Positions 24,228-63,921 of a stretch of DNA of 64,000 nucleotides are shown in pieces (within the stretch, counting starts at the first letter, position 1; the number at the start of each line of letters is the position of its first letter). The position numbers and the translations under genes were made by a program. The notes under the pieces were generated by a model that worked only from the letters and a program-made list of their open reading frames with translations, did no database searches and was not told the origin of the DNA. Source of the stretch: a bacterium (lineage in GTDB: Bacteria > Patescibacteriota > Gracilibacteria > UM-FILTER-43-11); assembly GCA_030427295.1 (NCBI GenBank), contig JAUHWS010000001.1:14079-78078 (forward strand), in the 5' to 3' direction.

Positions 24228-24794
24228 ATGAACCTGAAGAAAATTTTTTTTGGAGAACCTGAAACACCAAGTTATATTCTTCATGTGGCAGTTAGTCCGC
24301 TTTTTTTAAAGAATGCCAAAGCTGAATGGACTCATTTAAGAGTTTTTAAACTTAAAAAAGAAGGTTTAGAAATAAATTGGGATCCAAAAAGAAAGGATTT
24401 TGGCCAAATACTTCTTGATGATCGCTATGAAGAAAAGAGCTATGAAATAAGTTTATCAGGAAAATCAGTGACTTTTATTGATAAACGGGTAAAAAATAGC
24501 GAAAAATATTATACAGTTTTTTATTCTGACTTTATTGACTTTATTGTTCGTAGTTATCAAAAAGGGAAGTTGTCAGTTGAAATTAAAGACTTTTTAAAAT
24601 TTGCAGAATCTACATATGATAAAAAATATTTTGAAGCTAACTATAATTTAAAAAAAGAATATGAAGAGCTCTACTCCATTAACTATCTTGCTAAAATGAA
24701 AATGGAGGGTAGTGGCTACAGAGATTCAAATTCAATTAGGCTAATAATGCAAGACATCTTTGAAATTAGTATCGCAACATACAACATAATTTAG
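24228..24794 (+). CDS. Hypothetical protein, markedly AT-rich gene
   Basis: 188-aa Lys/Tyr/Ile/Asn-rich ORF. Its base composition is visibly more AT-rich than the flanking genes. Confidence 0.5.
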   Translation: MNLKKIFFGEPETPSYILHVAVSPLFLKNAKAEWTHLRVFKLKKEGLEINWDPKRKDFGQILLDDRYEEKSYEISLSGKSVTFIDKRVKNSEKYYTVFYSDFIDFIVRSYQKGKLSVEIKDFLKFAESTYDKKYFEANYNLKKEYEELYSINYLAKMKMEGSGYRDSNSIRLIMQDIFEISIATYNII

Positions 24795-42364: not shown

Positions 42365-42790
42365 ATGAGAAGTGTTAATAAGGTCATCCTTGTTGGAAAC
42401 CTCACACGAGATCCTGAGCTCAAGCAAACGACAGGAGGACAATCCATTGTCACCTTTGGCATGGCCACCAATCGAGAATGGGTCACGGGAGACAATGAAA
42501 AAAAATCACTTGCCGAATACCACAATATTGCTGCTTGGGGACCCCTCGCTGAAATTTGTGGAAAATACCTCAAAAAAGGAAAATTAGTCTACATCGAAGG
42601 CTACTTAAAAACACGCTCATGGGACAGTCCGGAAGGGGTAAAAATCTTCAAGACTGAGATTGTCGCCACTGACATGATCATGCTCGACAAGCGCCCTCAA
42701 GATGAGGGCTTGCCAAATAACGACCATTTTGAAGATCATATGAGCAGCCCTGAAGAGCCGGATGACAATGTATTTGATCCCGCTGCCTAA
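42365..42790 (+). CDS. ssb: Single-stranded DNA-binding protein
   Basis: OB-fold pattern VNKVILVGNLTRDPELK..TFGMATNREW..EYHNIAAWGPLAEICGKYLKKGKLVYIEGYLKTRSWD. The acidic tail ends DDNVFDPAA. Confidence 0.9.
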   Translation: MRSVNKVILVGNLTRDPELKQTTGGQSIVTFGMATNREWVTGDNEKKSLAEYHNIAAWGPLAEICGKYLKKGKLVYIEGYLKTRSWDSPEGVKIFKTEIVATDMIMLDKRPQDEGLPNNDHFEDHMSSPEEPDDNVFDPAA

Positions 42791-47838: not shown

Positions 47839-48867
47839 ATGTCCAATAAGATCAGCCTAAAAAAATGTGTGAGTCTTTTTTTGGCGACCATGGCATTGGT
47901 GGTTTATCTGCCTACCTTTGCCCAAGGTCAAGACGAAGCAAAAAAGGGATTTTTGGATGTCGCCAGGACGCACGAATATTATGTGCCCATCACCTATTTG
48001 GCGAGCCAAGAAGTGATCAAGGGGTATGATGATGGCAATTTCAAATCTGACAAATTTGTCAATAAGGCTGAGGCCCTAAAAATCATCATTGAAGGCTCAG
48101 ACATTCCAACCGATGTTGTCTTTAGCCCCCTTTTTCCGGATGTCACTCAAGCTGATTGGTTTTGGAGTTACGTGATGAAGGCTCATGGACTGGGCATCGT
48201 CAACGGGAATGACGAAGATGGAACGTTCACTGGTTACGAAGTCGTCAATTTGGCGGAGTTCCTAAAGATGCTCCTCTTAGCCAACGAGATTGATGTCACG
48301 ATTTTTGAAGGCAAGCAAATTGTTCCGAATGTCGATCCCGCCGTGTGGTTTTCGAATTACGCCAGCTACGCCGCTCAAACTGGGATCATCAGTCTGAATG
48401 AAAATGGAGAAATCGACCCCTCTGCCACCCTAACTCGTGGAGAAGTGGTCAATCTGATGTACCTCCTCATTATTGTCATGAATGGCTCAGACACCGATTT
48501 TCTGACCGAACAAATGGAGCAACAAGTTGGACAAATTGAGATCTACATTGCCGACAATCGCTTGGATTTAGCCAAAACCGCCTCCAAACTGGCCGATGAC
48601 ATCGGGCAGCAAATCATCAAAAATGACGGAGAAGATCTCACGGTTGTGGCAGCCGCCAAGGTGGCCCGTGCCTATGATTTATTGGTGGATGCTTACATTG
48701 CAGGCACCGAAGGTAACAATGAAAAGGCCACTGATCTGGCCAATCAAGTCATCCAAAAGGCCAATGAAGCTCAAGAGACCGACGGAGCCCAAGAAAGCAT
48801 CGCCATCCACCTAAAAGAAATCGCCCAGGACATTCTAGAAGAGGTCGAAGCCGATACTACTCAGTAA
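47839..48867 (+). CDS. Secreted protein with three S-layer-homology (SLH) domains and a C-terminal helical region
   Basis: Signal peptide, then three SLH-like repeats: FLDVARTHEYYVPITYLASQEVIKGYDDGNFKSDKFVNKAEALKII; FPDVTQADWFWSYVMKAHGLGIVNG..; VDPAVWFSNYASYAAQTGII..LTRGEVVNLM. Confidence 0.75.
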   Translation: MSNKISLKKCVSLFLATMALVVYLPTFAQGQDEAKKGFLDVARTHEYYVPITYLASQEVIKGYDDGNFKSDKFVNKAEALKIIIEGSDIPTDVVFSPLFPDVTQADWFWSYVMKAHGLGIVNGNDEDGTFTGYEVVNLAEFLKMLLLANEIDVTIFEGKQIVPNVDPAVWFSNYASYAAQTGIISLNENGEIDPSATLTRGEVVNLMYLLIIVMNGSDTDFLTEQMEQQVGQIEIYIADNRLDLAKTASKLADDIGQQIIKNDGEDLTVVAAAKVARAYDLLVDAYIAGTEGNNEKATDLANQVIQKANEAQETDGAQESIAIHLKEIAQDILEEVEADTTQ

Positions 48868-50009: not shown

Positions 50010-50038
50010 ACATTAAGGTGTGGGGTAGGTATATACTT

Positions 50039-50270
50039 TGTGTGAGGGTTAGTATATACTTTATTCTTAGTTACGAATTACGAGTGACGAATTACGAGTT
50101 GATTTTTTGAGCGTTTAGCGGTCAGCGTATAGCGTTTAGCTCTATTCTAAGCTCTATTTCAGCTAATCGCTAGCCACTCACCACTGACCACTTGCCGAAA
50201 AAGGAAGCGGGACGATTCCCAGCATTTCGAAGAAGGTAGGTATATAGTTGGGAAGAAGGTGAGTATATAC
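50039..50270 (+). repeat. GTATATAC double-box module M5 (interior type 2)
   Basis: Boxes at 50039-46, 50062-69, 50240-47 (GTATATAG) and 50263-70. The interior is homologous to M3. Confidence 0.85.
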
Positions 50271-50282
50271 TTCTTTTCCAGC

Positions 50283-50414: not shown

Positions 50415-52502
50415 ATGTCAGACTACAAGGAAGCACTCAAGAAGGTCCGAAACTTTGGGATCATTGCCCATATCGATGCAGGGAAGACCACCTGTACCGA
50501 ACGTATTTTGTACTACACCGGTAAATCTTACAAAATCGGGGAAGTGCACGAAGGAGAAGCCACCATGGACTGGATGGAACAAGAGCAAGAACGCGGGATC
50601 ACCATCACTGCTGCCGCCACCACTTGTTTCTGGAAAGATCATCACTACAACATTATCGATACTCCAGGTCACGTGGACTTCACCGCTGAAGTAGAACGTT
50701 CCATGCGTGTGCTCGATGGGGGGGTAGTGGTTTTTGATGGGGTGGCTGGGGTAGAACCTCAGTCTGAAACCGTATGGCGCCAAGCTGACAAATACCATGT
50801 ACCTCGCATGTGTTTTATCAACAAGCTCGACCGTACTGGAGCCAGTTTTGAGCGTTCGTTCCAAAGTATCTTGGATCGCTTGACCAAAAATGCCTCACCC
50901 ATTCAATTGCCGATTGGAATGGAGTCAGACTTCAAAGGGCTGGTTGACTTGGTCGAAATGAAAGCCACCATCTACACCAACGACTTGGGAACCGACATGG
51001 AAGAAACCGACATTCCCGAAGACATGAAGGCCGATGTAGAAAAATGGCGCGCTCAGATGCTCGAAAAAGTCGCCGAAGGGGACGAGCAATTCATGGAAAA
51101 GTATTTGGGAGGTGAAGAATTCACCACCGAAGAACTCAAAGCCGCCATTCGCCGTGCTGTGATTGCCAACAATTTTGTCCCGGTCCTCACCGGGACAGCC
51201 CTCAAAAACAAGGGGGTACAACTGCTTTTGGATGCCGTAAACGACTACCTACCTTCTCCACTCGACATTCCTGCCATCAAAGGACACATGGCAGATGATC
51301 CAGAAAAAACCGTGGAACGCCACACTGATCCAAATGAACCTCTTGGAGCCCTCGTCTTCAAAATTGCTACGGACCCTTTTGTAGGACGCCTCTGTTTCGT
51401 TCGTGTCTATTCAGGAGTCCTCAAATCTGGATCTTATGTGTACAACTCCTCTCAAGATGCCAAAGAACGAATTGGACGCTTGGTGGAAATGCACGCCAAC
51501 GATCGAAAAGAAATTCAAGAAATTTCAGCGGGACACATTGGGGCCGTCATTGGTCTCAAATCAGTGCGAACCGGATCCACTCTCGTGGGAGATGGTCAAC
51601 CAAAAGTGATTCTCGAATCCATCGAGTTCCCCGAACCCGTGATCTCGATTGCCATCGAACCTAAAACCAAAGCCGACCAAGAAAAGATGGGGCTAGCGCT
51701 TCAAAAATTGGCCGAAGAAGATCCAACCTTCCGTGTACGCTCGGATGAAGAAACCAATCAAACCATCATCTCAGGAATGGGTGAGCTTCACCTCGAAGTC
51801 CTCGTAGACCGCATGAAACGCGAATTTAAAGTGGAAGCAAACATTGGTAAGCCTCAAGTGGCCTATCGTGAAACCATCCAAAAAGAAGTGGAAGAAGAAG
51901 AGAAATACTCCAAGCAAACCGGTGGACGCGGTCAATACGGTCACGTGCTCATCCGTGTCATGCCAAACGAAGCCGGAAAAGGATACGAGTTCATTGACTC
52001 GATCGTGGGAGGGCGTATTCCTAAAGAATACATCCCTGGGGTGCAAAAAGGTCTCGACGAAGCCCTCACGCGTGGGGTGATTGCTGGCTACCCAGTCGTC
52101 GATGTCAAAGTAGAGCTCTACGACGGGTCTTACCATGACGTCGACTCTTCTGAGTTAGCCTTTAAGATGGCTTCTAGCATTGCCTTCAAGAACGCCTGTA
52201 AAAAAGCCAGTCCAGTACTTCTAGAGCCCACCATGCACGTGGAAGTCGTGACTCCAGAAGATTACATGGGGGATGTGATGGGGGACATCAACTCTCGTCG
52301 GGGGCAAATCGATTCGATGGGGGATCGTGGACAAGCCAAAACCATCGAAGCCAAAGTCCCACTCTCCGAAATGTTCGGTTATGTTGGTGACCTCCGCTCG
52401 ATGACCCAAGGAAGGGCTTCATACACCATGGAATTCTCTCACTACGCCAAAGTGCCTAACAACGTGGCTGAGAAGATCCGTGAAGAACGAGGGATGGCGT
52501 AA
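50415..52502 (+). CDS. fusA: Elongation factor G
   Basis: [27 protein letters not shown], and domain IV/V blocks. Confidence 0.97.
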
Positions 52503-52708: not shown

Positions 52709-53422
52709 TCATTTATTACTTTGCTTCTGTCTTCTGATCTCCGCATTCACTTGCTCAAGAGTATCAAAAAAGGCTTTACGAGACCCAGACGCTCTATCTA
52801 ACATTGACATGTAAGTAAGGACCTCTGGATCATTTAGAGGTCCCCTTAAGGCATCTCTCCACAGAGTTTCAGTTTTTGTATCAATGCTTCCACTCGACAA
52901 ACCCTCATTTAAACGGTTAAGTATAAACATAGCTGCCATTATTTTACCAGATGACTCACCATGAAGTCGCAGTCTGTCTTTGATATGCAGCCGTCTTGCA
53001 TATTGAGTGAATATAGACTGAATTGTTCCCACCTGTTCTTTATGGGGCAGACTTGCTACGTAATCTATGGCAGACATGACAAAGTTCTCGCCCTCACTTG
53101 CATCCGAAGCCAAAATTTCATCCACTAATGGCTCAGTTTCGTGCTGAAGTCTATCGCCCAAAGCGTTAATCCATCGATTTCGAATGTCATCAGGCAATTG
53201 CCTAATATAACCCATTATTTGATGAACAAATTTGCGTTGAACGTGCTCAGGTGTAATCCAATCGTGATGATGTGAAGATGCGTTCCTCATTCCTCTATCA
53301 AAGGCTGCTTGCATCGCATCAGCATCTCGAGCTGCATCCATCTCGTATAAAAATTGTTCAAAGTAATCGCGCTTGGGTTCAGGTGCGGGAATCCGATAGG
53401 TGTCTTTTGATCTTTCATTCAT
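52709..53422 (-). CDS. Hypothetical protein (ORFan)
   Basis: 237-aa ORF that looks helical, with no signal peptide and no recognisable motif. Confidence 0.5.
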   Translation of the reverse strand: MNERSKDTYRIPAPEPKRDYFEQFLYEMDAARDADAMQAAFDRGMRNASSHHHDWITPEHVQRKFVHQIMGYIRQLPDDIRNRWINALGDRLQHETEPLVDEILASDASEGENFVMSAIDYVASLPHKEQVGTIQSIFTQYARRLHIKDRLRLHGESSGKIMAAMFILNRLNEGLSSGSIDTKTETLWRDALRGPLNDPEVLTYMSMLDRASGSRKAFFDTLEQVNAEIRRQKQSNK

Positions 53423-53529
53423 CCCTTAATTATAACATTTTCTTAGTTAAAACACAAAAAATAACCCTTAATTCCCATTTGAAACGCCTTTGTCTTTCTG
53501 CTACACTCCAAACAGAAAAAAACAAAAAA

Positions 53530-54018
53530 ATGAAAAGCGTAGTAAGCACATCACTTTCTCGTAAACTCAAATCCGGCGTCCTGTGGGGGCTGGGATTTTT
53601 TGCGGCTTTTGGGTTGGCATTTTATGCCTACGCCATTGGATTTCCTGACACCCAACCGGGTCCCGCCTCTGGCGTCGTGGGGATGTTTGTAGGAGCCACG
53701 CCCCAGGTTTATACTGGAAACATCAGCAATTACGACAAGGCCAATGGAAATTGCATCGACGCCTACGAAGACAGCCACATTTGCACGACCACCGAAATAA
53801 TCAATACTTACAATCACAATTCAGCTACCCTTCTGGGTCAAACCGATAGTTTTTGGGTCAACGGTGGCAGCCCTGCAAATCTAGAAGACTTCAGCAGTGA
53901 TTGTTTAGGATGGAGCACGGATCTTAGTGTTGCTTTCGGATATGTATGGGATACCGGTGATCAGCGGGCCTACCTCACCTCCTGCGACCAACAGCGCGCT
54001 TTTGCTTGTTGCAAGTAG
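53530..54018 (+). CDS. Membrane-anchored/secreted Cys-rich protein
   Basis: ATG 53530 (MKSVVSTS..) precedes a TM/signal helix. The C-terminal domain has 6 Cys (..NGNCIDAYEDSHICTT..SSDCLGWST..YLTSCDQQRAFACCK). A C-type-lectin/endostatin-like fold is only a guess. Confidence 0.55.
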   Translation: MKSVVSTSLSRKLKSGVLWGLGFFAAFGLAFYAYAIGFPDTQPGPASGVVGMFVGATPQVYTGNISNYDKANGNCIDAYEDSHICTTTEIINTYNHNSATLLGQTDSFWVNGGSPANLEDFSSDCLGWSTDLSVAFGYVWDTGDQRAYLTSCDQQRAFACCK

Positions 54019-54072
54019 GTCCGAATGGGTTGCGAATTGGCCGCGAATAGTTCACGGATAGATTACGAATTG
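54019..54072 (+). repeat. 11-nt periodic array, about 5 units, followed by three TGGACCNNNTGG 12-mers
   Basis: gtccgaatgg gttgcgaattg gccgcgaatag ttcacggatag attacgaattg. Starts at the nt after the TAG at 54016-18. Confidence 0.85.
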
Positions 54073-54184
54073 TGGGACGGGTGGTGGACCGAGTTGTGGA
54101 CCAAATGGTTGTCTTAACTGAATAGAAACCACAACCCGGCCAACAATGCGGCCCACGGATTGACTTGGATAAAACAAAATAAAT

Positions 54185-55945
54185 ATGACGCTCAAAAAAT
54201 TTCTCCCTATCGCTACCTTTTTCATGGCTTTGCTTGCGTTTCCCACCCTCACGCAGGCGGGCTTGAGTGATCGTTGTTTTCCCTCCATTCAATGTGATGA
54301 AAGCAGTGACTACTACGCGGGCAGCTGTCAGAAAAAAATCGATACGATCAACGATTGTCCTGTGCCTCCTTTTGGGCAATTCTCTGCCTTTAGTTGTGAT
54401 TACGGATGTTATTTTCGGACGCGCCCCGAATTTCAAGAATGCGCAGGGGGTTTCATGGTCAATGGTACCTGCATGACCTCCCTCGAAATCGTCAACGACG
54501 AAAATCAAAGTAAGATTTGGGATGGGGTCGAACTCGAATCCATCGGAGCCGGTGGTGAAGGGTTGTGGGAAACCGACGGAGTCCACGTGTATCGCAGCTC
54601 CGGAAATGTCGGGATTGGTGTCGAAAATCCCGAAGACTACCCGCTGGATGTAGCAGGCCCTATCAATGTAAATCATGACGTTGAGGGGGCGGCGATTTAT
54701 GCCAACCAGCGTCAAATGCTTTGGTATAATAAGGAATTTGGACTTGCGGGGTGGGGCTTTGACGCCGATGTCAATCTCTTTCCAAAGCGCGTGGGAATTG
54801 GAGCAATGCCTCCAGAAGAAACCAATCTGTATGTCGAAAAAGATGAGGAAGTCAACGCGTTAGGAGGCAATTATACTGGTTATTTCTATAACAAAAATAG
54901 TGGGACCACAGCTACGACTGGCATCTTCACACGCGGAGAGGCAGCCAACGCTTCAACGTATGGGCTCACTAGCTACGCCTGGAGCACCGGATCCAATGAT
55001 GCACACGGGATTTATAGCTATGCCTTAGTACAAGACAACAACAATGCAGACATTGCTTACGGACTGTACTCCATATCAATGAACAATTCCAATAACTGTG
55101 ACAATGAAGGGTGTGCCCACAGCTACGGAGTGTATTCCAAGGCTAATGGACCACTTTCAACAGGGGTGTATGGGGAAGCGCGTCAAACCGCAGGGCATTT
55201 TGTAGGTGCTTCAAACGGAAATAGCAATACCGTTGGATTAAAAGTAGAGAGTGAAGCATCTGGTTCGACCGGAGCCACCTTTAACTGTGACGGCCCTTGT
55301 ACCTCAGCCATTTTTTATGATGGGGATGATGTGGCTTACAACGAATACAAGTCTGGCATGGTGATCATTGGCAGTCCGACATCAAACCATCTCAGTTTCG
55401 ACAACAATGAAATCATGGCTAAACAATTGGGGAGTTTTTCCACCCTCCACCTCAATGCCGATGGAGGGAGTGTGATGCTCACCAAGGGCAATCCAGCTTA
55501 CAAGCTCCAATTGGCGAATGACAGTAATAATTTAAAAGGACGAGGGTTGGCATTCTCGTGGGATACCTTTTCTGACAGTCGGGTCAAGATGAATCAAAGA
55601 GATCTAAAATATGGATTAGATACTCTTATGAAATTACGACCCAAATCTTACGATCATTACAGTGGTACCGTCCAAAACGGCCAAGTCATGCTAGGAGAGG
55701 ATTATGAACCCACCATCGGATTCATTGCTCAAGAGGTTTACGACGTTATTCCTGAGGCTGTCAGAAAGCCAGCGGATGAGTCCAATGAACTCTGGACCAT
55801 GGACAGCGACAAATTGGTCCCGGTGCTGGTCAATGCCATCCAAGAACAACAAACCACCATCGATCAGTTGACTTCTGCCGTCTGCGATCTCAATCCCAAG
55901 GCTGACATCTGCAGCGAATCCAATCAAAAAGCACCCTCAATTTAG
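54185..55945 (+). CDS. Secreted tail-fibre-like protein with C-terminal peptidase S74 intramolecular-chaperone domain
   Basis: Signal peptide; Cys-rich N-domain; central repeats of the xYG(L/V/I)YS type. The C-terminus reads FSDSRVKMNQRDLKYGLDTLMKLRPKSYDH..PTIGFIAQEVYDVIPEAV...DKLVPVLVNAIQEQQ, the endosialidase/tail-fibre chaperone pattern. Confidence 0.8.
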   Translation: MTLKKFLPIATFFMALLAFPTLTQAGLSDRCFPSIQCDESSDYYAGSCQKKIDTINDCPVPPFGQFSAFSCDYGCYFRTRPEFQECAGGFMVNGTCMTSLEIVNDENQSKIWDGVELESIGAGGEGLWETDGVHVYRSSGNVGIGVENPEDYPLDVAGPINVNHDVEGAAIYANQRQMLWYNKEFGLAGWGFDADVNLFPKRVGIGAMPPEETNLYVEKDEEVNALGGNYTGYFYNKNSGTTATTGIFTRGEAANASTYGLTSYAWSTGSNDAHGIYSYALVQDNNNADIAYGLYSISMNNSNNCDNEGCAHSYGVYSKANGPLSTGVYGEARQTAGHFVGASNGNSNTVGLKVESEASGSTGATFNCDGPCTSAIFYDGDDVAYNEYKSGMVIIGSPTSNHLSFDNNEIMAKQLGSFSTLHLNADGGSVMLTKGNPAYKLQLANDSNNLKGRGLAFSWDTFSDSRVKMNQRDLKYGLDTLMKLRPKSYDHYSGTVQNGQVMLGEDYEPTIGFIAQEVYDVIPEAVRKPADESNELWTMDSDKLVPVLVNAIQEQQTTIDQLTSAVCDLNPKADICSESNQKAPSI

Positions 55946-56031
55946 CTTGGTAGTTTAGTCGTTTCGCTAGCTTATTAAGCTCTGTATGCTGCTATGGTGG
56001 CTTCAGCAATAAACAATAGAAATCAGTAAAC

Positions 56032-56469
56032 ATGAAAAAAATAGCCAAAAAAATCAGTGCCGTGCTCCTTGCCACCTTCATCCTCTCCGCTTGTGCCAAT
56101 CAGGATGAAGCGCCAAATATAGAATCAGAGGTCACGACCGAGCCTGATCAAAGTACGACAGATAACTCAAATGCCGAAACTGAAGCCGTTCAAAACACTG
56201 GTACACCAGCCCTTCCCACCACTCCCGACCCCACAGAAGTCCTGGTTCAAGACCTGATGAATGAAACCCAGCCCACCGAAACGGGCACCCTCGATGACCT
56301 CCCTCAAGATCTCCCAGAAGCCACCGACAGTCCCGAATACAGCCAAGCGACCACTCCCGAATCTCCCCAAGATTGTGAAGCCATTCAAGATGCAGAGTTG
56401 AAATCAATCTGCTATCACGCCGCAGGCTACAGCGACAATTCACCCTCTGTCGAGGAAGATGCTTTGTAA
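56032..56469 (+). CDS. Acidic Pro/Thr-rich lipoprotein
   Basis: Lipobox ..FILSAC at aa 15-20. The remainder is low-complexity and acidic. Confidence 0.65.
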   Translation: MKKIAKKISAVLLATFILSACANQDEAPNIESEVTTEPDQSTTDNSNAETEAVQNTGTPALPTTPDPTEVLVQDLMNETQPTETGTLDDLPQDLPEATDSPEYSQATTPESPQDCEAIQDAELKSICYHAAGYSDNSPSVEEDAL

Positions 56470-56470
56470 A

Positions 56471-56554
56471 ATGTCTGATGTCTAATGGGCTAATGTCTAA
56501 TGGGGACAATCATTTGGAAAATACAAAAAGCATAAGACATTAGACATCAGACAT
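56471..56554. repeat. Perfect 17-bp inverted repeat (atgtctgatgtctaatg / cattagacatcagacat) with a 50-nt loop
   Basis: Left arm 56471-56487, right arm 56538-56554. Built from agacatc/agacatt heptamer words. It starts 1 nt after the lipoprotein stop and is followed by an A-run, not a T-run. Confidence 0.85.
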
Positions 56555-56566
56555 CAAAAAAACCCT

Positions 56567-56595
56567 TTGACAGGCGAGGGGGCATTTGCTAAAAT
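56567..56595 (+). promoter_or_regulatory. Strong sigma-70-like promoter for tuf (TTGACA-17-TAAAAT)
   Basis: TTGACA at 56567-72, a 17-nt spacer, TAAAAT at 56590-95, about 100 nt upstream of the tuf ATG. Confidence 0.65.
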
Positions 56596-56695: not shown

Positions 56696-57883
56696 ATGGC
56701 TGAAGGAACATTTGATCGCAGCAAGCCACACGTGAATGTTGGGACCATTGGTCACGTCGACCATGGTAAAACAACACTCTCTGCTGCACTTTGTACAGTT
56801 GCTGCTGCACAAGGACATGGTAAGGCAGTAAGCTTCCAGGACATTGATAATGCTCCTGAAGAAAAGGCTCGTGGTATTACCATTGCCACCTCTCACCAAG
56901 AGTACGAAACAAACAAGCGTCACTACGCTCACGTGGATTGTCCTGGGCATGCTGACTACGTTAAGAACATGATTACGGGTGCCGCTCAAATGGATGGTGC
57001 CATCTTGGTGGTTTCTGCTGCTGATGGACCAATGCCACAAACTCGAGAACACATCCTATTGGCTCGCCAAGTAGAAGTACCTCACATTGTGGTCTTCTTG
57101 AACAAATGCGACATGGTAGACGATCCAGAACTTCTCGACTTGGTTGAAATGGAGATCCGTGAACTTCTCAACAAATACGAATTCCCTGGAGACGACACGC
57201 CAATCATCCGTGGTTCTGCGCTTAAAGCGCTTGAAAACCCATCTGGAGATGATGCTAAGCCAGTGGTTGAACTCCTCAACAAGTTGGATGAATACATTCC
57301 AGATCCAAAACGTGATATCGATAAAGACATGTTGATGCCCGTTGAAGATATCTTCTCTATCAAAGGTCGTGGTACCGTTGCCACGGGTCGTATCGAACAA
57401 GGGGTGGTTAACGTGAATGACGAAGTTGAAATCGTCGGTCTACGTGACACCAAGAAAGTGGTTGTGACGGGAGTAGAAATGTTCCGAAAACTGCTTGATC
57501 GTGGTCAAGCTGGAGATAACGTTGGCTTGCTCCTTCGTGGGGTAGAGCGTGACGATATCGAACGTGGACAAGTGATCGCTAAACCAGGAACCATCACACC
57601 TCACAGTGAATTCGAAGCTGAAATCTACGTTTTGAGTAAAGAAGAAGGAGGGCGTCACACGCCATTCTTCAAAGGTTACAAACCTCAGTTCTACATCCGA
57701 ACGACTGACGTAACCGGTGAAGTTCATCTTCCAGAAGGAACCGAAATGGTGATGCCTGGAGATAACATCAAACTCCGTGTGACCCTTGGTAAAAACATCG
57801 CCCTAGAAGACGGAACCCGTTTCGCGATCCGCGAAGGAGGTCGAACCGTTGGAGCGGGTGTGGTCACCAAGATCATCAAATAG
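56696..57883 (+). CDS. tuf: Elongation factor Tu
   Basis: [22 protein letters not shown], and full-length similarity to EF-Tu. Confidence 0.98.
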
Positions 57884-58036: not shown

Positions 58037-58369
58037 ATGGCTGCTAAAAAAGATTCTGGCAATAAACAACGCATTCGCATTACCCTAAAAGCCTTCGATC
58101 ATACCATCATCGATAAGGCTGTTGAAACCATTATCAGCACAGCAGAACGCACGGGGGCTATTGTGGCTGGGCCAATTCCGCTTCCTACCAAGATTAAAAA
58201 ATTCACGGTTCTCAAATCAACTTTTGTCTCTAAAGACTCTCGTGAACAATTCGAAATGCGCATCCACAAACGTTTGATTGACCTGCGCGAAACCACCTCT
58301 TCAACCATCGACTCACTCACCAACCTCTCGCTTCCTGCCGGAGTGGACATTGAGATTAAAATGCTTTAA
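58037..58369 (+). CDS. rpsJ: 30S ribosomal protein S10
   Basis: [11 protein letters not shown]......I...A...GA...GPIPLPT......VL.S....[15 protein letters not shown]. Confidence 0.96.
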
Positions 58370-58402
58370 TAGCGATTAACGATTAGCGAGTAACGAATAA
58401 CA
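58370..58402 (-). repeat. Heptamer word array (tagcgat taacgat tagcgag taacgaa taac)
   Basis: Starts at the nt after the rpsJ TAA. Confidence 0.75.
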
Positions 58403-58472
58403 TAAAAGCAGTTGTCCAACTTATAAAGTACCTCCTTTGAGTGGTGCTTTTTAGTTTTTAATCCTAAATATA

Positions 58473-58832
58473 ATGAAAACCTTTAAAGATGTGCTTGTTT
58501 GGAAAGAGTCATATAAATTCACATTGCTGATTTATAAACTGACAAATAACTTTCCCACATCCGAGGAATTCGGGCTAAAATCTCAAATGAGACGAGCCGC
58601 TGTATCTATTATTTCAAACTTCGCTGAAGGGTTCAAGAAGGCTAGTTTTAAAGAAAAAAATCATTTTTATAAAATCTCTGAAGGATCCTTAGAAGAAATC
58701 AAATGTCAAACGATGCTCTCCAAGGATTTGTCCTATTTGAGTGAGCAGGAGTACGAACAAATCGCATTGTTAGAAAATACCATCAGAAGACTGCTTCATG
58801 GTTGGATAAAATCCCAAAAATCTCACTACTAG
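58473..58832 (+). CDS. Four-helix-bundle protein (23S rRNA intervening-sequence protein family)
   Basis: FKDVLVWKESYKFTLLIYKLTNNFP..E.FGLKSQMRRAAVSIISNFAEGF.....KEK.HFY.IS.GSL.E, the TIGR02436-type pattern. Confidence 0.85.
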   Translation: MKTFKDVLVWKESYKFTLLIYKLTNNFPTSEEFGLKSQMRRAAVSIISNFAEGFKKASFKEKNHFYKISEGSLEEIKCQTMLSKDLSYLSEQEYEQIALLENTIRRLLHGWIKSQKSHY

Positions 58833-58863
58833 CTAATCGATAATCGTTACTCGTTAATCGTTA
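58833..58863 (+). repeat. Heptamer word array (ctaatcg ataatcg ttactcg ttaatcg tta)
   Basis: Starts at the nt after the TAG at 58830-32. Confidence 0.75.
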
Positions 58864-58901
58864 TAAGGATTTGCTATAATTTCAGTAAGCGCTTTAAAGA
58901 A

Positions 58902-59921
58902 ATGACATCAAAAAAAACCATCATCATTGGCGCAGGGCCTTCAGGGTTGGCGACGGCCTACTATCTCAAACGTGCAGGAGTGGATTTTGTGATGTTCGAA
59001 AAAGGGGATCGGCCGGGATTTTCCTATGCGAGTATGCACGAGAGCCTCAGGCTCCTCACGCCGGCCTGCTACTCCAACTTGCCAGGATTCAAACTCTCTC
59101 CCAAAAAACTTCCCTACTACACCCGTCCTCAGCTGATCGATTACTATGAGGATTACGCCGAACACTTTGAACTCCCCATTCAATTTGGTCAGGAGGTTGA
59201 ATCGGTCACAACTCACTCCGGTGGGTTTGAGGTGAAGACCAAAACTGACATCTATCAAGCCAAGTCCCTGGTTTGTGCGACGGGGCAATTTACTCACCCA
59301 TTTATCCCGCCTCTGAAGGGCCTAGCATCCACTGCCATCACGGTGATGCATTCGTCTGCCTATCAGTCGCCCCAAGCGCTCAAATCAACTCTAAACGGCA
59401 AGCAACGGGTGCTAGTGGTTGGAGGAGGAAACACGGGTACCGAAATCGCTTGTGAACTGGCCGAGGCAGGATTCAAGGTGGGTCTCTCGACCAAGCGCCC
59501 TCTCCACGTGCTCCCGCACCGTATTGTAGGGCTGGATGTTCATTTTATCGCCCGCCCTTTTGAGCACCTCACTCGCCTTGTCACCCGCATCACGGGTAAG
59601 CCTTTTGAGGTCAAAAAGACGCCGGTTTTAGGCCGACAGATCTTGCAGAAGATCAAGTCGGGTCAAATCCACGCGTATACTCAATTGCTAGGATTCGACC
59701 ACGATCAAGTCCAATTCAAGTCCGAATCCGTTCCTTTCGATGCTGTCATTTTGGCGACGGGTTATCGTTACGAAACGCCCTATCTCAAATTCTCCAGCGC
59801 CCCTCCCGGCCTCTTCTATGTCGGCAAGCCCGGCCAATCCGGCCTCGACTCGGCCTTCCTTCGCGGAATCAACTTGGATGCCAAGCGAGCCGCGAAGCAA
59901 GTGTTGCGGTATTTGAAGTGA
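58902..59921 (+). CDS. NAD(P)/FAD-dependent oxidoreductase (flavin-monooxygenase-like)
   Basis: Two Rossmann GxGxxG motifs, IIIGAGPSGLATAYYL and VLVVGGGNTGTEIACEL, plus an ATGY motif. Confidence 0.8.
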   Translation: MTSKKTIIIGAGPSGLATAYYLKRAGVDFVMFEKGDRPGFSYASMHESLRLLTPACYSNLPGFKLSPKKLPYYTRPQLIDYYEDYAEHFELPIQFGQEVESVTTHSGGFEVKTKTDIYQAKSLVCATGQFTHPFIPPLKGLASTAITVMHSSAYQSPQALKSTLNGKQRVLVVGGGNTGTEIACELAEAGFKVGLSTKRPLHVLPHRIVGLDVHFIARPFEHLTRLVTRITGKPFEVKKTPVLGRQILQKIKSGQIHAYTQLLGFDHDQVQFKSESVPFDAVILATGYRYETPYLKFSSAPPGLFYVGKPGQSGLDSAFLRGINLDAKRAAKQVLRYLK

Positions 59922-59922
59922 A

Positions 59923-60164
59923 GTATATACTCACCTTCTCCTCATCTATATACCTACCCTCTATGAAATGCTGAAGTTCATTTCGATACCTTTTTCAACA
60001 AGCGAATAGCGAGTAGCGAGTAGCGATTAGCTAAAATACAGCTTTCAGAAGCCCCCTCTAACTCCCCCGAAGGGGGAGGGTAAATAATGCTTCCTTGCAC
60101 CTCGCACTTAGCCCGCCGCACTTGTGACGAAAAGTATATACTTATCATCTTCCTAACTATATAC
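59923..60164 (-). repeat. GTATATAC double-box module M6 (interior partly type 2)
   Basis: Boxes at 59923-30, 59946-53 (CTATATAC), 60134-41 and 60157-64 (CTATATAC). The first box starts 1 nt after the oxidoreductase TGA (gTGAaGTATATAC). The interior contains agcgaat agcgagt agcgagt agcgatt agc and a ctcccccgaagggggag hairpin. Confidence 0.85.
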
Positions 60165-60352
60165 TCACCCTCTGAAAAAAGCTGGGGGCTCAGAGCTTGT
60201 TGCTGGGAGTAAAATTCGGTTAGTATAGCTCTTCATTCGTCTTAAATAAGAGGTAATTTAAGTTATTCTAAATACCGACTAGTCTACCAGCTAACAGCTA
60301 ATAGCTACCATCTCGAATAAAGTATATACCCACCCTACCTTCAAGTATATAC
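60134..60352 (-). repeat. GTATATAC double-box module M7 (interior type 3), sharing its left box pair with M6
   Basis: Boxes at 60134-41, 60157-64, 60322-29 and 60345-52. The interior is homologous to 36931-37149. Confidence 0.85.
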
Positions 60353-60426
60353 CTAAGTGTACCGTTATCACTCTCCTGCCTGAGCAAGACAATCATCTGA
60401 ATTTTACAATGTCGGAGACAGAATGC

Positions 60427-61083
60427 CTATTCAGCGAATTCCAGAAAGGGATTGTTGTCCTCGTGATCTGGATCTGCTGGTCTTTTAAGGTCATCATCCA
60501 TCCAGCCCCGAGTTAATTGTTCAGCTTCAACAACTTTATCCCTTTTAATGATAAAACTAGTACTTGCCTCGCCATTTAGTTTGGATTTTGCCTTCCGCAG
60601 TTGGTTTTCCTCACGGGTCAAATTCCCTTCGTTTAACCCATCAAAAAATGAAGCTAGTCCAGCCTTTCGATTCAAAGTCATGACTTGATTGCCAGCTTCA
60701 TCCAAAGTAACTGATTGGATGATCACTCTAACATAGGGGGTGCCCCCGACCATATCAACTCGCTCCACAAGCGCAAGATTTTCTGAAGAAGTTCCATCTT
60801 CATTGTGTTCGTAACGAACCATTGTGCCAGGAAGGTATTTATCTCTAGTGTCTAAATATTCCAATAAATCACCCCCCATATCTCCATCCCTAAATTGAAT
60901 CACACAATCTGCAAAAGCAGCTCGCTGCTCTTCAATTAATTGCGCTTCACAAGATCTTTCAGCTGCAGCTTGCCGTTCAGCGTCAATTCTTCTTACCATA
61001 TCACCCACTGTGCTGACTAAGCTCAGCCCTCCTGCTTGAGACATTTCAACATCTCTACGTTCGAATGTTCTTCCATCAGGCAT
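60427..61083 (-). CDS. Hypothetical protein (ORFan; shares a beta-rich segment with the 61145-61846 product)
   Basis: 218-aa ORF. The segment GTMVRYEHNEDGTSSENLALVERVDMVGGTPYVRVIIQSV aligns by eye with GSEVLHARLEDGSADPDRVALVDDVETIEGLRLVRCLVERV in the next gene. Confidence 0.5.
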   Translation of the reverse strand: MPDGRTFERRDVEMSQAGGLSLVSTVGDMVRRIDAERQAAAERSCEAQLIEEQRAAFADCVIQFRDGDMGGDLLEYLDTRDKYLPGTMVRYEHNEDGTSSENLALVERVDMVGGTPYVRVIIQSVTLDEAGNQVMTLNRKAGLASFFDGLNEGNLTREENQLRKAKSKLNGEASTSFIIKRDKVVEAEQLTRGWMDDDLKRPADPDHEDNNPFLEFAE

Positions 61084-61144
61084 ATCATCGTGAGTTATGA
61101 GCTAAGAGTTTATTTTTACACACCAACTGACCTTAAGACAAGTT

Positions 61145-61846
61145 TTATTGAGGGTTTCTTCCACGTACAGCCCCAACAAATTCATTGATAAATCGTTGAG
61201 TTGTCCACCCAGGGATCTCCAATGATTGGGCAACTCTCTTATCACCATTCTTAGCTAATCGGGCCTTGGCTTCTGCAAGCCTCTCTAAATTGACTGCTAA
61301 ATCATCTGGGTTCAATTCGTCTAAATCCACAGGACGACCATAAAGGACTTCAATTATGGTGGTTCTCTGGCCATCTTTACCTTGAACCACCCGTTCGACA
61401 AGGCATCGGACGAGACGAAGGCCTTCAATGGTTTCCACATCATCAACCAGGGCCACTCTGTCAGGGTCAGCGGAACCATCCTCCAAGCGGGCATGTAAGA
61501 CTTCAGAGCCTCTTGCGTAGCGCTTTTCTGCTCTTTTTTCTGCTTCTGTCCTTTGGCGATCATTCTCATCTAATTGAGCCAGAGTTTGGTCTGCTAAGGC
61601 CTGATATTCCTCGGCAGCTGCCTCGTCCATTCTGGGGCCACCTAAAGACTGACCTTTTCCGTCCATCAAATCAGCAAATTTACCTCTTTTAGAAGTAACT
61701 GCAGCATGAGCAGTATCTTGCCCATCTTTTTCAGCTAAAAACCGTGAACCACTTTCCGAAGCCAGACGGAGCTCTCTCTGTCTCTGTCTATCAGCAGCCG
61801 CTGGGTCGATAAGGTCTTCATAGGTTTCTAGTTTTCTGGCACCCAT
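61145..61846 (-). CDS. Hypothetical protein (ORFan, putative paralog of the 60427-61083 product)
   Basis: 233-aa ORF, rich in charged residues, with no signal peptide. Confidence 0.5.
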   Translation of the reverse strand: MGARKLETYEDLIDPAAADRQRQRELRLASESGSRFLAEKDGQDTAHAAVTSKRGKFADLMDGKGQSLGGPRMDEAAAEEYQALADQTLAQLDENDRQRTEAEKRAEKRYARGSEVLHARLEDGSADPDRVALVDDVETIEGLRLVRCLVERVVQGKDGQRTTIIEVLYGRPVDLDELNPDDLAVNLERLAEAKARLAKNGDKRVAQSLEIPGWTTQRFINEFVGAVRGRNPQ

Positions 61847-61918
61847 AATTTGAAAAGTTAGTAATTTAGTAAGTTTTTAAGCGCTTTAAACTGGAAAAAT
61901 GAATCTAGAATCTTAAAT

Positions 61919-62617
61919 TTAATCATTTTCAACATCAATCTGAATTTGCTCACCCATATATTCATTAACAACTTCATCAAGCTCCCTAGTATCATTGACG
62001 TTATCAACAGGACCATGTGGACATGGTATGATCGAAAGTTGATTGATTATTTCTTTTGGAAAAGAAGCTGGGACATTAGCTCCAGTCTGGGATCGGGTAT
62101 AGACAATCACTGAGCCATCTTTTTCCGGATCAAGGCCAAGGTAAATCATGCAGGCCACTACTTTTTCAGCTTGATCACAAACCAAAAGTACATCACCCGG
62201 TTCACATGTTTGAATATCAAAACCAAGGTCTGCAACATCCAATGGATATTCATCCTCTTCTTTCACGAGTGTTGCATCATTCACAATTTCATGGGCATCA
62301 CTTGGCTCTACTTGAGGAACGCCGTAACATGGCGCGGCCGCGATTGGCTCAGACCCGATAGTCCGATTTTCAGGTCTAGCAAGGACAAACCCACCACTTA
62401 CCTTTAAAGAAGTGACCCCACGGGCAGCCGCTAAAAATTTAGCTCGATTGCTGTTTGCCGCGCGCAACAAATCAGCACCAGAAACATCTCCTAAAATACT
62501 AAATCTGTTCCTAATGGCCTTAGTCACATTTGGGCCAAGTTGAACTAAGCCCTCAAAACTTTTTGGTTCTTCTATGATGTCAGTTTCAGTATATAAATCT
62601 TCTGCTGCGCCAGCCAT
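61919..62617 (-). CDS. Hypothetical protein (ORFan)
   Basis: 232-aa ORF with no recognisable motif. Confidence 0.5.
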   Translation of the reverse strand: MAGAAEDLYTETDIIEEPKSFEGLVQLGPNVTKAIRNRFSILGDVSGADLLRAANSNRAKFLAAARGVTSLKVSGGFVLARPENRTIGSEPIAAAPCYGVPQVEPSDAHEIVNDATLVKEEDEYPLDVADLGFDIQTCEPGDVLLVCDQAEKVVACMIYLGLDPEKDGSVIVYTRSQTGANVPASFPKEIINQLSIIPCPHGPVDNVNDTRELDEVVNEYMGEQIQIDVEND

Positions 62618-62726
62618 GGTAGCTAAATTTAATTTTTTAAAATTATTTAACCATTAACTTTATACAATAATATATTGAAAAATGTCAAGAGGAAGTTGGC
62701 AAGGAGAAGGTGAAAATTTCAGCGTG

Positions 62727-63560
62727 TTAGAGTTGTTTTCTACCGAAACCTGCTAAAAGTTCTTGAAAGAGACTAATAAGTCTTTTGCTCAGTCTAGATA
62801 ATTTTTCAATCACAGAGTCAAATGATAAACCTGCAGAAACTACTGGTTTATTTGACTGTCTTAAGGCAATCGCCTTATTTAACTCTTCAACATTAACAAC
62901 TCTTGTCATCCGATTTTCATCGCATTCTGCATTAACAATTTGGCTAATAGAGCCTGTTCTAGACCTAACATCGGAGATTACACCCATGCGAACCAAGTCC
63001 AGACGCCCAGTCCTTTCCATAGCCGCTAGTAGTTCTCCAATCTTAGCTCGTGATTCATCAAATCGAGTCACAGCTTCACGACCTCTCTCTTGATCGTCAG
63101 CCAGTCTTAATGCCGCCCTAGCCAACGTCACCATCCGTTCGACAGAATCATAAAGATCTGTATGCTCAAACCCTTTAGAAATAAGCTTATCAGCCAATCT
63201 AAGCCCATGTCTTTGGATTTCTTGCAATTGTTCATCCAATCGATTATCAGATTCACCATTGTACTCCAGTTCATTAGGAATGCCTGGTGCAAGTTCCGCC
63301 AATTCAATAACTGGCGTGCCATGCTGACTTATAATATCTTCAAAATGGACATCTTTGTGACCCGTTTCACCCCCAGGAGTTTCAAACTCAATTCTTATAA
63401 AAGGGTACTCCAGCTGAGTGGTGGCAACTCCCTGATACCAGTTGCCGTCGCTCCGTTTAAACTGAACTGGCCGTTTATTCACAAGAATAAAAATACGATC
63501 AAAGCGAGCGATATCAGCACCGCTTGGCTGTTCACTTGGATTAGTTCGGGGAGCATGCAT
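62727..63560 (-). CDS. Hypothetical protein (ORFan)
   Basis: 277-aa ORF with an N-terminal beta-rich segment (FILVNKRPVQFKRSDGNWYQGVATTQLEYPFIRIEFE) and a helical C-terminal half. Confidence 0.5.
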   Translation of the reverse strand: MHAPRTNPSEQPSGADIARFDRIFILVNKRPVQFKRSDGNWYQGVATTQLEYPFIRIEFETPGGETGHKDVHFEDIISQHGTPVIELAELAPGIPNELEYNGESDNRLDEQLQEIQRHGLRLADKLISKGFEHTDLYDSVERMVTLARAALRLADDQERGREAVTRFDESRAKIGELLAAMERTGRLDLVRMGVISDVRSRTGSISQIVNAECDENRMTRVVNVEELNKAIALRQSNKPVVSAGLSFDSVIEKLSRLSKRLISLFQELLAGFGRKQL

Positions 63561-63921
63561 GGCTAGAGGGTTAATGAATTAAGTAATTAACCTTATACCC
63601 CACCATACCACACCTTAAATTTTTGTAAAATTTTTTCTCCAAAAAAGTCATGCCACTCAAAGCCTTGACTTCTGCAGTCAATCTGATACACTCATTTTAA
63701 TAACTCCCTCATACATACCCACCACAGCACTTAAGCACAGACAAAAATGAACTAAACGCTAAACGCTGACCGCTACTCAAAAAATTGAGCACAGCCAAAA
63801 CCCAAAGCGGTGTGTAGAAGAGTTAATAACATATCACGAATGGATTCGCGCTCCACGTTGGTTTGTTTTTATTTAAAAATCAATGTCGGATTCGACATTC
63901 CATCCACAACCCCAAATAAAC

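Follow-up and report, generated by a model that had tools for sequence, protein, structure and literature searches.

A putative trimeric surface adhesion fibre with a C-terminal S74 domain, encoded with membrane-anchored partners between fusA and tuf in a Peregrinibacteria lineage

Chromosomal, surface-exposed trimers that resemble phage fibres have been described in Bdellovibrio bacteriovorus, where 21 such proteins are termed mosaic adhesive trimers (MATs) (Caulton et al. 2024, PMC10769870). An S74 domain with the motif SDxxxK forms the end of 13 of them, and 8 have a tip of another kind, among them TNF-like and C-type-lectin folds. Bd3182 has been shown to cleave itself through S74 and Bd2439 to bind glycans. 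The N-terminal domain directly behind the signal peptide is conserved in the whole family and 'would presumably tightly bind a surface element' that is still unidentified (PMC10769870). Here, we describe a module of three co-directional genes in a 64,000-nt stretch of bacterial DNA, hereafter the window (contig JAUHWS010000001.1 of assembly GCA_030427295.1, positions 14,079 to 78,078 of the forward strand). The central gene encodes a 586-aa protein, hereafter the fibre, which is with good confidence a secreted, self-processing surface fibre. On balance, we favour the view that the module is a domesticated, inherited trimeric surface adhesion fibre that probably serves attachment to a host or a surface. 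Host attachment as the specific job of the fibre is proposed with less assurance than its secretion and self-processing. The module and the genes that border it are as follows.

50415..52502, plus strand: fusA, encoding elongation factor G (EF-G), a 695-aa open reading frame (ORF) at the upstream edge of the slot
53530..54018, plus strand: gene 1 (tm162), 162 aa, membrane-anchored, six cysteines
54185..55945, plus strand: gene 2 (fibre), 586 aa, predicted to be Sec-secreted, C-terminal Peptidase_S74 domain
56032..56469, plus strand: gene 3, acidic lipoprotein of 145 aa with a lipobox
56696..57883, plus strand: tuf (EF-Tu), downstream edge of the slot, assigned from the ORF and comparison with relatives

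A sequence-only reading of the window had described genes for a Cys-rich membrane-anchored protein, a 586-aa secreted protein and an acidic Pro/Thr-rich lipoprotein, and the ORFs, the transmembrane helix, the signal sequences and the lipobox bear this out. The fibre can be divided into the following parts.

54185..54259, plus strand: Sec signal peptide, residues 1-25, with a KK n-region, a hydrophobic core and TQA/G cleavage
54260..54538, plus strand: N-terminal 8-Cys domain, residues 26-118, Cys 31, 37, 48, 58, 71, 75, 86 and 96
54602..54658, plus strand: shaft motif GNVGIGVENPEDYPLDVAG, residues 140-158, profile match to Bdellovibrio Bd2133
54959..55177, plus strand: variable centre with five YG(L/I/V)(Y/T)(S/G) repeats, residues 259-331, found by regular expression
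55355..55570, plus strand: pre-cleavage segment, residues 391-462 (HLSFDNNEIMAK...LNADGG...), common to S74 proteins of Bacteroidota, Planctomycetota and others
55571..55945, plus strand: Peptidase_S74 or intramolecular chaperone (ICA) domain, residues 463-586 and the stop codon, dyad Ser463/Lys468

The C-terminus of the fibre is confirmed as an ICA domain by profile search, catalytic dyad and fold. Residues 463-527 match PF13884 (E 1.8e-10, 41.4 bits against a Pfam cut-off of 22), and the orthologues match too, so the S74 chaperone domain named in the sequence-only reading holds. The SDxxxK motif reads SDSRVK here. S463 and K468 are invariant in alignments of 10 and of 61 sequences, and across the 61 sequences they share this invariance only with G512 and A515. 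An AlphaFold2 model reaches a predicted local distance difference test (pLDDT) of 93-96 over residues ~470-570, and its best Foldseek match is the ICA domain of MyRF (7dc3, E 3e-4, probability 1.00, template-modelling score TM(target) 0.63), followed at a non-significant E of 0.44 by the K1F endosialidase chaperone (3gw6). When the profile of the clade's fibres was compared with PDB sequences, it matched the C-terminus of phage S16 gp37 (6f45, E 1e-12) and also MyRF 7dc3. Trimerisation followed by autoproteolysis that would release the S74 domain is what we infer for the fibre, because K1F endosialidase, T5 pb1, MyRF and Bd3182 behave in this way.

At the other end, the protein begins with MTLKKFLPIATFFMALLAFPTLTQA, followed by GLSD, and carries an AxA-type cleavage site (...AFPTLTQA/GLSD), a pattern kept in the orthologues. 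The 8-Cys domain behind it, with a column identity of ~0.5-0.6 within the clade, is the conserved end of the family and presumably the cell-proximal anchor. A degenerate second copy of the shaft motif lies at residues 201-215, and G140, V142, G143, G145 and P149 are nearly invariant in an alignment of 50 family members. The central YG-type repeats noted earlier were recovered as YGLTS at 259, HGIYS at 274, YGLYS at 292, YGVYS at 314 and TGVYG at 326. PHROG tail-fibre profiles align over residues ~254-569 (E down to 1.5e-18), indicating that the phage-fibre homology is wider than the chaperone domain. Within the clade, column identity is ~0.58 over residues 26-200, ~0.3 over 226-300 and ~0.5 at the C-terminus. 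After the predicted cleavage, the segment 391-462 would form the distal tip of the mature fibre. The AlphaFold2 monomer is confident only for the C-terminal domain and low in pLDDT elsewhere, as expected for an obligate trimer modelled as a monomer; Foldseek matches outside the S74 domain were discarded, the model being unreliable there.

We compared this architecture with the described systems. Like the MATs, the fibre is chromosomal, phage-tail-fibre-like and, by prediction, exported through Sec. In layout, both have a signal peptide followed by a conserved N-terminal domain and variable tips, of which a subset are S74 domains and the rest other ends. Both repeat a shaft capping-loop motif (VG..xxPxxxL), which is nearly invariant in the 8-Cys family; the clade fibre profile matches Bd2133 chain 8ond_A in the PDB (E 1.2e-9, with two GNVGIGxxxPxxxLxVaG copies) and also Bdellovibrio 8ojn. 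In both cases the user would be a bacterium living on other bacteria, and a C-type-lectin fold belongs to the toolkit, as the Bd2740 tip there and as the predicted gene 1 ectodomain here. On these points of likeness, the Bdellovibrio MAT fibres are the closest known system. The differences are that eight cysteines mark the N-terminal domain here, which is confined to ~59 cluster representatives and likened to the MAT N-terminal domain by architecture; that the fibre has 586 aa compared with ~1,000 aa in a typical MAT; that a single fusA-tuf locus with dedicated membrane partners stands in place of 21 dispersed paralogues; and that the owner belongs to the candidate phyla radiation (CPR), with an envelope that is presumably of a monoderm type with an S-layer and SLH proteins, unlike the diderm Bdellovibrio. 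The sequence-only reading mentioned neither this already published closest analogue nor the fourth gene usual in the module.

Phage ICA fibres and tailspikes (K1F endosialidase 3GW6, T5 pb1 4UW8, S16 gp37 6F45) share with the fibre the S74 or ICA domain, the Ser-Lys dyad and the preceding fibre repeats. They differ in that the protein here has a signal peptide, no accompanying virion genes and an N-terminus that is not a baseplate or tail adaptor, and in that the identity is ≤36% and confined to the last 20-30% of the protein. The 'tail fiber domain-containing proteins' of Bacteroidota, Planctomycetota and others are likewise chromosomal S74 proteins outside phages, and the shaft motif and the pre-cleavage segment of the fibre recur in them. 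At annotation level, they combine YadA_head and/or PF26696 with S74, and some have sorting domains of the type IX secretion system (T9SS). They differ from the module here in their N-termini and in how they are exported (through T9SS in some), and they lack conserved partners of the tm16x or ~90-aa kind. In structure, the C-terminal domain matches MyRF (7DC3) best, and MyRF has the same kind of trimerising, self-cleaving module, yet it is a membrane-bound transcription factor whose cleavage frees a DNA-binding part, and there is no functional parallel. Since chromosomal S74 fibres are known in Bdellovibrio and widely annotated in Bacteroidota, the finding is not categorically new. Our literature search turned up no description of an S74- or MAT-type fibre from CPR/Patescibacteria, and what is new here is the N-terminal anchor domain, the conserved set of membrane partners and the fixed fusA-tuf slot.

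The 8-Cys domain was then used as a profile. It matched 59 proteins among 1.84 billion cluster representatives, 36 of them at E 1e-10 or better, and the match starts within the first 40 residues in 56/59, right behind the signal peptide where the N-terminus is complete. Family members reach 1273 aa, and most of the full-length ones have 450-1270 aa. Pfam scans of 50 members found Peptidase_S74 in 29, YadA_head in 20 and T4 Gp34_trimer in 1; some tips are without any Pfam match. The fibres of loci L200, L201 and L202 (1043, 662 and 804 aa) lack S74 and agree with the window's fibre in signal peptide, 8-Cys domain and GNVGIG-type motifs. Their ends are of two cysteine-containing C-terminal kinds of unassigned fold, one in L201 and L202 and the other in L200. 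The fibres of L198 and L206 (1060 and 1197 aa) terminate in S74, and that of L206 also has YadA-head repeats. In this pattern, one end is conserved and presumably cell-proximal, and the shafts and tips joined to it are interchangeable and stem from phage fibres and from trimeric adhesins.

Several candidates were set aside in this comparison. P0018, P0096 and P0097, considered as distant relatives of the N-terminal domain, lie in unrelated contexts and match the shaft motif only. Identity as a YadA-type trimeric autotransporter was rejected on its membrane anchor: neither the window's fibre nor the family scan shows a YadA_anchor (C-terminal beta-barrel), and head repeats alone occur, in 20/50 relatives. 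The tip of the L200 fibre matches the gene 1 profile weakly (5.9 bits, E 1e-3 in a set of 8 sequences); the match is suggestive, and we do not claim the tip as a C-type-lectin-like domain of the gene 1 kind.

The RpoC of the window is 85-89% identical to that of Candidatus Peregrinibacteria, Peribacteria and Patescibacteria metagenome-assembled genomes (MAGs), by which the source organism is a CPR bacterium represented by a Peregrinibacteria/Peribacteria MAG. This agrees with the small-genome, possibly episymbiotic type of organism that the sequence-only reading had suspected. The locus was recovered from biofloc and aquatic metagenomes. Its DNA is identical in contigs of two runs (X1, X2), which may be the source sample itself or a duplicate filing of one data set, and nearly identical, with few substitutions and 0 coding indels, in two more runs from other samples and studies (X3, X4). 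The identity in X1/X2 and the near-identity in the independent X3/X4 indicate that the locus DNA is real. A look for RNA runs with the locus found none.

At least 13 related contigs have the module in this same slot between fusA and tuf. Across the clade, fusA is followed by tm16x, the fibre gene, a gene for a membrane-anchored acidic protein, one for a ~90-aa transmembrane protein and then tuf. The loci with this order are L030, L031, L032/33, L194, L195, L196/197 (L196 being identical to L197), L198, L200, L201/L042 (the same contig), L202 and L206; L040 shows the module in part, as its contig ends after gene 1. Of these, L194 to L206 and L040 were added by searches from gene 1 and from the fibre N-terminal domain. 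The closest full-length homologues of the fibre, P0002-P0006 (36-57% identity), occupy the same place on their contigs, which read fusA, a 162-163-aa gene 1, fibre, a ~140-aa lipoprotein, a ~95-aa transmembrane protein, tuf and rpsJ. Identity to the window's proteins at the syntenic loci is 79-94% for EF-G, 83-88% for EF-Tu and 32-65% for gene 1; the fibres are 27-57% identical or share the N-terminal domain alone, with L198 at 27-28% over the S74 end. Occupation of the same slot in at least 13 contigs despite such diverged fibres means vertical inheritance and not a mobile prophage. In most of ~35 distant Peregrinibacteria/Gracilibacteria loci (RpoC ≤66%), the fusA-tuf gap is ~100-200 bp, and in the few with a gap of 0.35-1.8 kb no module homologue was detected. 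Since fusA and tuf are nearly adjacent in most of these distant relatives, the module is a clade-specific inherited insertion. By these comparisons, it is a derived, vertically inherited feature of one Peregrinibacteria subclade. P0139 is the fibre of a trio that lies away from the fusA-tuf slot, with partner proteins of 180 and 213 aa, which argues that the genes travel as a functional unit.

Two further observations were made at these loci. In L032 (7455-7462) and L033, the orthologous fibre gene is split into ORFs of 95 and 485 aa by a +1 frameshift in a G8 tract (GCAGGGGGGGGTGATGG), where G7 would leave the gene in frame. The split L032-type protein is recorded from three contigs, and the window has G5 at this place (54444-54448). 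The split could mean that a surface fibre is phase-variable, or it could be a frameshift that is fixed or stems from the assembly. Moreover, one contig of the pair L196/L197 is binned as 'Nanoarchaeota archaeon' (JAHJDQ010000211.1) and has the same locus length, hit coordinates and identities as the Patescibacteria contig, which comes from a related sample. As it carries a bacterial fusA and the module, its archaeal label is probably a binning error.

Gene 1 encodes a type-II membrane protein with a transmembrane helix at ~15-37, a tether of ~12 residues and a six-Cys ectodomain. An alignment of 12 sequences has 28 invariant columns and an invariant ...ACCK end. The ectodomain is modelled at pLDDT 85-89 for most of its length, and a Foldseek search of the PDB gives C-type-lectin-like, endostatin or Legionella Lcl C-terminal domains for every one of the top 50 matches (the best at E 1.1e-3, probability 0.99); matches in a viral library are C-type lectins and DUF1566 proteins. 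We assign a C-type-lectin-like fold to the model with moderate confidence, since no Pfam or NCBIfam family matches the sequence. The likeness of gene 1 to C-type-lectin-like, endostatin-like and DUF1566 (Lcl C-terminal) domains is one of predicted fold, whereas it has no sequence match to them and carries an N-terminal transmembrane anchor on a short tether. A gene 1 homologue lies upstream of the fibre in every module locus for which the region was recovered, immediately so in most; in L200-L202, an extra gene of 486-552 aa that ends in a C-type-lectin-like domain stands between them. As a tether of ~12 residues gives no long reach, docking or assembling the fibre at the membrane is a more plausible role for gene 1 than long-range adhesion.

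Gene 3 has the lipobox ILSA/C, a mature part of isoelectric point 4.05 with 23% D+E and 24% P+T, a small C-terminal 2-Cys motif (EDC...C.H/R/Q A.G) and weak NCBIfam matches to lipoprotein N-termini. Orthologues of 25-30% identity occupy the same position in L030, L031 and L032. The homology is limited to the window's subclade; others have a non-homologous membrane-anchored acidic protein at this position, namely a different lipoprotein in L198 and L206 and a transmembrane-anchored acidic protein in L200-L202. The fourth module gene of the relatives encodes a ~90-aa transmembrane protein with two conserved cysteines. We searched for it in the window and found none.

Taken together, the module may work as follows. 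The fibre, in which a signal peptide is seen, would be exported by Sec, and three chains would be registered and folded by the C-terminal S74 chaperone domain, which would then cut itself off at Ser463 through the Ser463/Lys468 dyad and leave. The product would be a mature trimeric, beta-rich fibre of residues 26-462, ~47 kDa per chain. The 8-Cys domain is proposed to hold it on the cell surface, where the most likely dock is formed by the gene 1 protein, the gene 3 lipoprotein and, in relatives, the ~90-aa transmembrane protein lost here; the strict gene linkage, the topology and the conserved extracytoplasmic cysteines are the grounds for this dock. The variable shaft and the exposed distal end would bind a ligand on another cell or surface, as suggested by the mosaic tips, the YadA-head repeats, the MAT-like shaft and the action of S74 phage fibres. 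Given the lifestyle, this ligand is most plausibly the envelope glycans of a host bacterium. PMC12206443 describes the cultivated representatives of the CPR as episymbionts throughout, and for this reason a host envelope is the obvious candidate. The domesticated attachment fibre put forward by the sequence-only reading is therefore supported by the signal peptide, the mosaic tips, the YadA heads and the MAT-like shaft; attachment to a host cell is the part that we infer. Of the two outcomes that the sequence-only reading had named as refuting, an S74 assignment that fails in profile search and a complete prophage around the cluster, neither was seen, the second within the 64-kb window.

Some observations weigh against an adhesion fibre of this kind. 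The pre-cleavage region is fairly conserved across phyla, which fits a structural role better than that of a specificity determinant. The AlphaFold2 monomer is low outside the S74 domain, so that the trimeric beta-helix shaft stays a prediction. Docking by genes 1 and 3 is read from linkage only, gene 3 is non-homologous across subclades, and the fourth partner is absent in the window. The fibre's N-terminal domain is a Cys-rich fold, and its likeness to the MAT N-terminal domain is one of position behind the signal peptide.

The first of these points also favours a self-directed or structural envelope fibre, such as an S-layer spike, an agent of biofilm or floc cohesion, or a phage decoy. SLH-domain envelope proteins adjoin the operon, the sequences come from biofloc and aquatic metagenomes, and the pre-cleavage tip is conserved, all of which would suit such a fibre. 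Whole-tip replacement between species at an orthologous locus is, however, the signature of changing external ligands and not of a structure that serves the cell itself unchanged, and we regard a self-directed fibre as unlikely, albeit worth keeping in view.

We give somewhat less credence to a secreted trimeric enzyme, that is, a tailspike-like depolymerase that degrades host capsule or extracellular polysaccharide or remodels the cell's own envelope. The S74 family owes its definition to endosialidases and is frequent on depolymerase tailspikes, and the P22 tailspike and K5 lyase are among the weak Foldseek matches (E above 1). Nevertheless, Pfam, NCBIfam and PHROGs found no catalytic family in residues 26-462, the region is short (~440 aa) with repeats of fibre type, and the family members carry YadA-head adhesin repeats and not enzyme domains.

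That the module is the cargo of a prophage or phage remnant, with the fibre as the tail-fibre gene of an integrated phage, is largely refuted and very improbable. The idea draws on the S74 domain and the PHROG tail-fibre homology, on phage fibres being the closest characterised relatives of the C-terminus, and on repeat modules that flank the cluster at a distance. Against it, Pfam scans, made on 46 ORFs between 1 and 63.5 kb, found no capsid, portal, terminase, tail, tail-tube, baseplate or integrase family in the 64-kb window, in agreement with the earlier remark that no phage genes are nearby, and the syntenic loci contain no tail module. The sole phage-flavoured match, Podovirus_Gp16 at 24228-24794, is below threshold (21.6 bits against a cut-off of 25). 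The families that were found belong to translation and RNA (PheS, RNase Y and the rpoB, ssb, rpoC, rpsL and rpsG neighbourhood), to cell wall and carbon metabolism (MurA-like, Mur ligase, Rpe, RpiB), to the envelope or secreted proteins (an SLH protein and a surface nuclease with LTD, PKD and SNase domains) and to others (SpoIIE phosphatase, glycosyltransferase, MFS transporter, DprA, ABC ATPase); the remainder are ORFans. Among 50,697 phage records, the match is confined to the last 20-30% of the fibre at 28-36% identity, in genes annotated as tail fibres, with starts at residues 395-449, and no record covers more than 30% of the fibre. Occupation of one fusA-tuf slot in at least 13 contigs by fibres diverged to ~36-57% over their full length, or less where a single end matches, also speaks against a prophage. 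Virion fibres do not carry a Sec signal peptide; here it points, like the gene 3 lipobox, to a place outside the cytoplasm, and that signal, together with membrane-protein and lipoprotein partners, is incompatible with virion assembly in the cytoplasm. Equally remote is a fibre of a tailocin or an extracellular contractile injection system (eCIS) with its apparatus encoded elsewhere in the genome: eCIS tail fibres are known to carry S74 domains (e.g. PMC12923769), yet no sheath, tube or baseplate gene lies in the window or the syntenic loci, a signal peptide is unexpected for parts assembled in the cytoplasm, and the conserved partners are small membrane-anchored proteins.

Returning to the slot itself, ORF calling of the window places a 4.2-kb insertion with four ORFs between fusA and tuf. 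Its remaining features, and the gene that follows tuf, are listed here.

52709..53422, minus strand: 237-aa ORFan, no Pfam, NCBIfam or PHROG family, outside the conserved module
53479..53507, plus strand: promoter candidate for the module, sigma-70-like, TTGAAA-17-TACACT with extended TG, 9/12 positions, a consensus match only
56471..56554, plus strand: perfect 17-bp inverted repeat (ATGTCTGATGTCTAATG ... CATTAGACATCAGACAT), read off the sequence, closing the module after gene 3
56567..56595, plus strand: near-consensus tuf promoter, TTGACA-17-TAAAAT, 11/12 positions
58037..58369, plus strand: rpsJ, the neighbour of tuf

The 237-aa ORF has no counterpart in any syntenic locus and is genome-specific; in L032, the tm162 homologue follows fusA directly with no intervening ORF. 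The promoter candidate of the module lies 23 nt upstream of the tm162 start. On inspection of the sequence, no T-tract was found behind the 17-bp inverted repeat.

Tandem intergenic modules of ~211 nt with paired palindromic boxes of the GTATATAC type occur at 50023-50278, upstream of fusA, and at 59914-60355, downstream of an FMO-like gene, where the copy is inverted (130-nt arms, 75% complementary). They bracket a 9.6-kb block of fusA, the module, tuf, rpsJ, IVP and FMO. Within 58037-59921, rpsJ is followed by the IVP gene and an FMO-like flavoprotein and not by rplC, which lies 3-4 kb further on in L030 and L031 and directly after rpsJ in L206. The gene at 58473-58832 encodes a 23S_rRNA_IVP or bAvd-like four-helix bundle (Pfam), and a 64%-identical IVP gene likewise follows rpsJ in L198 and L194. 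Arrays of the heptamer TAGCGAT/TAACGAT at 58369-58399 and 58834-58864 form an inverted repeat around it, and further arrays lie at 60001-60046, 50116-50142 and 63749-63775. The bAvd-like gene and the C-type-lectin-like fold of gene 1 raised the idea of a target of a diversity-generating retroelement. It was rejected: there is no template/variable repeat in 50-64 kb and no reverse transcriptase family in the window scans, and the populations show few substitutions.

Elsewhere in the window, an SSB gene (PF00436, E 4.5e-33) lies at 42365-42790 between rpoB and rpoC. The 1002-aa protein at 8539-11547, with four lamin-tail domains (LTD), a PKD and a staphylococcal-nuclease (SNase) domain, is likely a surface or secreted nuclease for nucleotide scavenging. 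A protein with three SLH repeats (E 3.9e-24) is encoded at 47839-48867, directly downstream of rpsG, and the gene is kept at this place in the clade at 41-50% identity; it points to an SLH-anchored envelope layer in the lineage. Between the SLH gene and fusA, the close relatives L035 (16347-23060) and L046 (16041-23874) have minus-strand genes for 697-1843 aa, and these large insertions are another variable island of the str operon. On the minus strand at 60427-63560, four co-directional ORFans of 218, 233, 232 and 277 aa match no Pfam or NCBIfam family.

A more far-reaching proposal, which we put forward tentatively and consider doubtful in its full form, is that the module is the clade's host-recognition apparatus. 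Gene 1 and the ~90-aa transmembrane protein would form a 'socket', possibly disulfide-linked, for the 8-Cys domain. Recombination with modules of phages and adhesins would swap the tips between species, and the type of tip would then follow the host range, with poly-G phase variation in some populations, and the fusA-tuf position would couple expression to growth.

Little is known of the means by which ultrasmall CPR/Patescibacteria locate their hosts and stay attached to them. According to PMC12206443, type IV pili are the apparatus tested so far, in Saccharibacteria only. The locus offers a concrete, conserved and sequence-defined candidate for recognition in Peregrinibacteria. It has useful traits, as S74 self-cleavage would provide a biochemical read-out and natural tip variants exist at an orthologous locus. 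Dedicated membrane partners could explain how such a fibre is retained, a point left explicitly unresolved for MAT fibres (PMC10769870). Should our reading be wrong, the locus would still be an unusual, stable insertion of envelope genes within one of the best conserved operons of bacteria. If the reading is right, it would extend the view that phage receptor-binding modules were domesticated repeatedly by bacteria that live on other bacteria.

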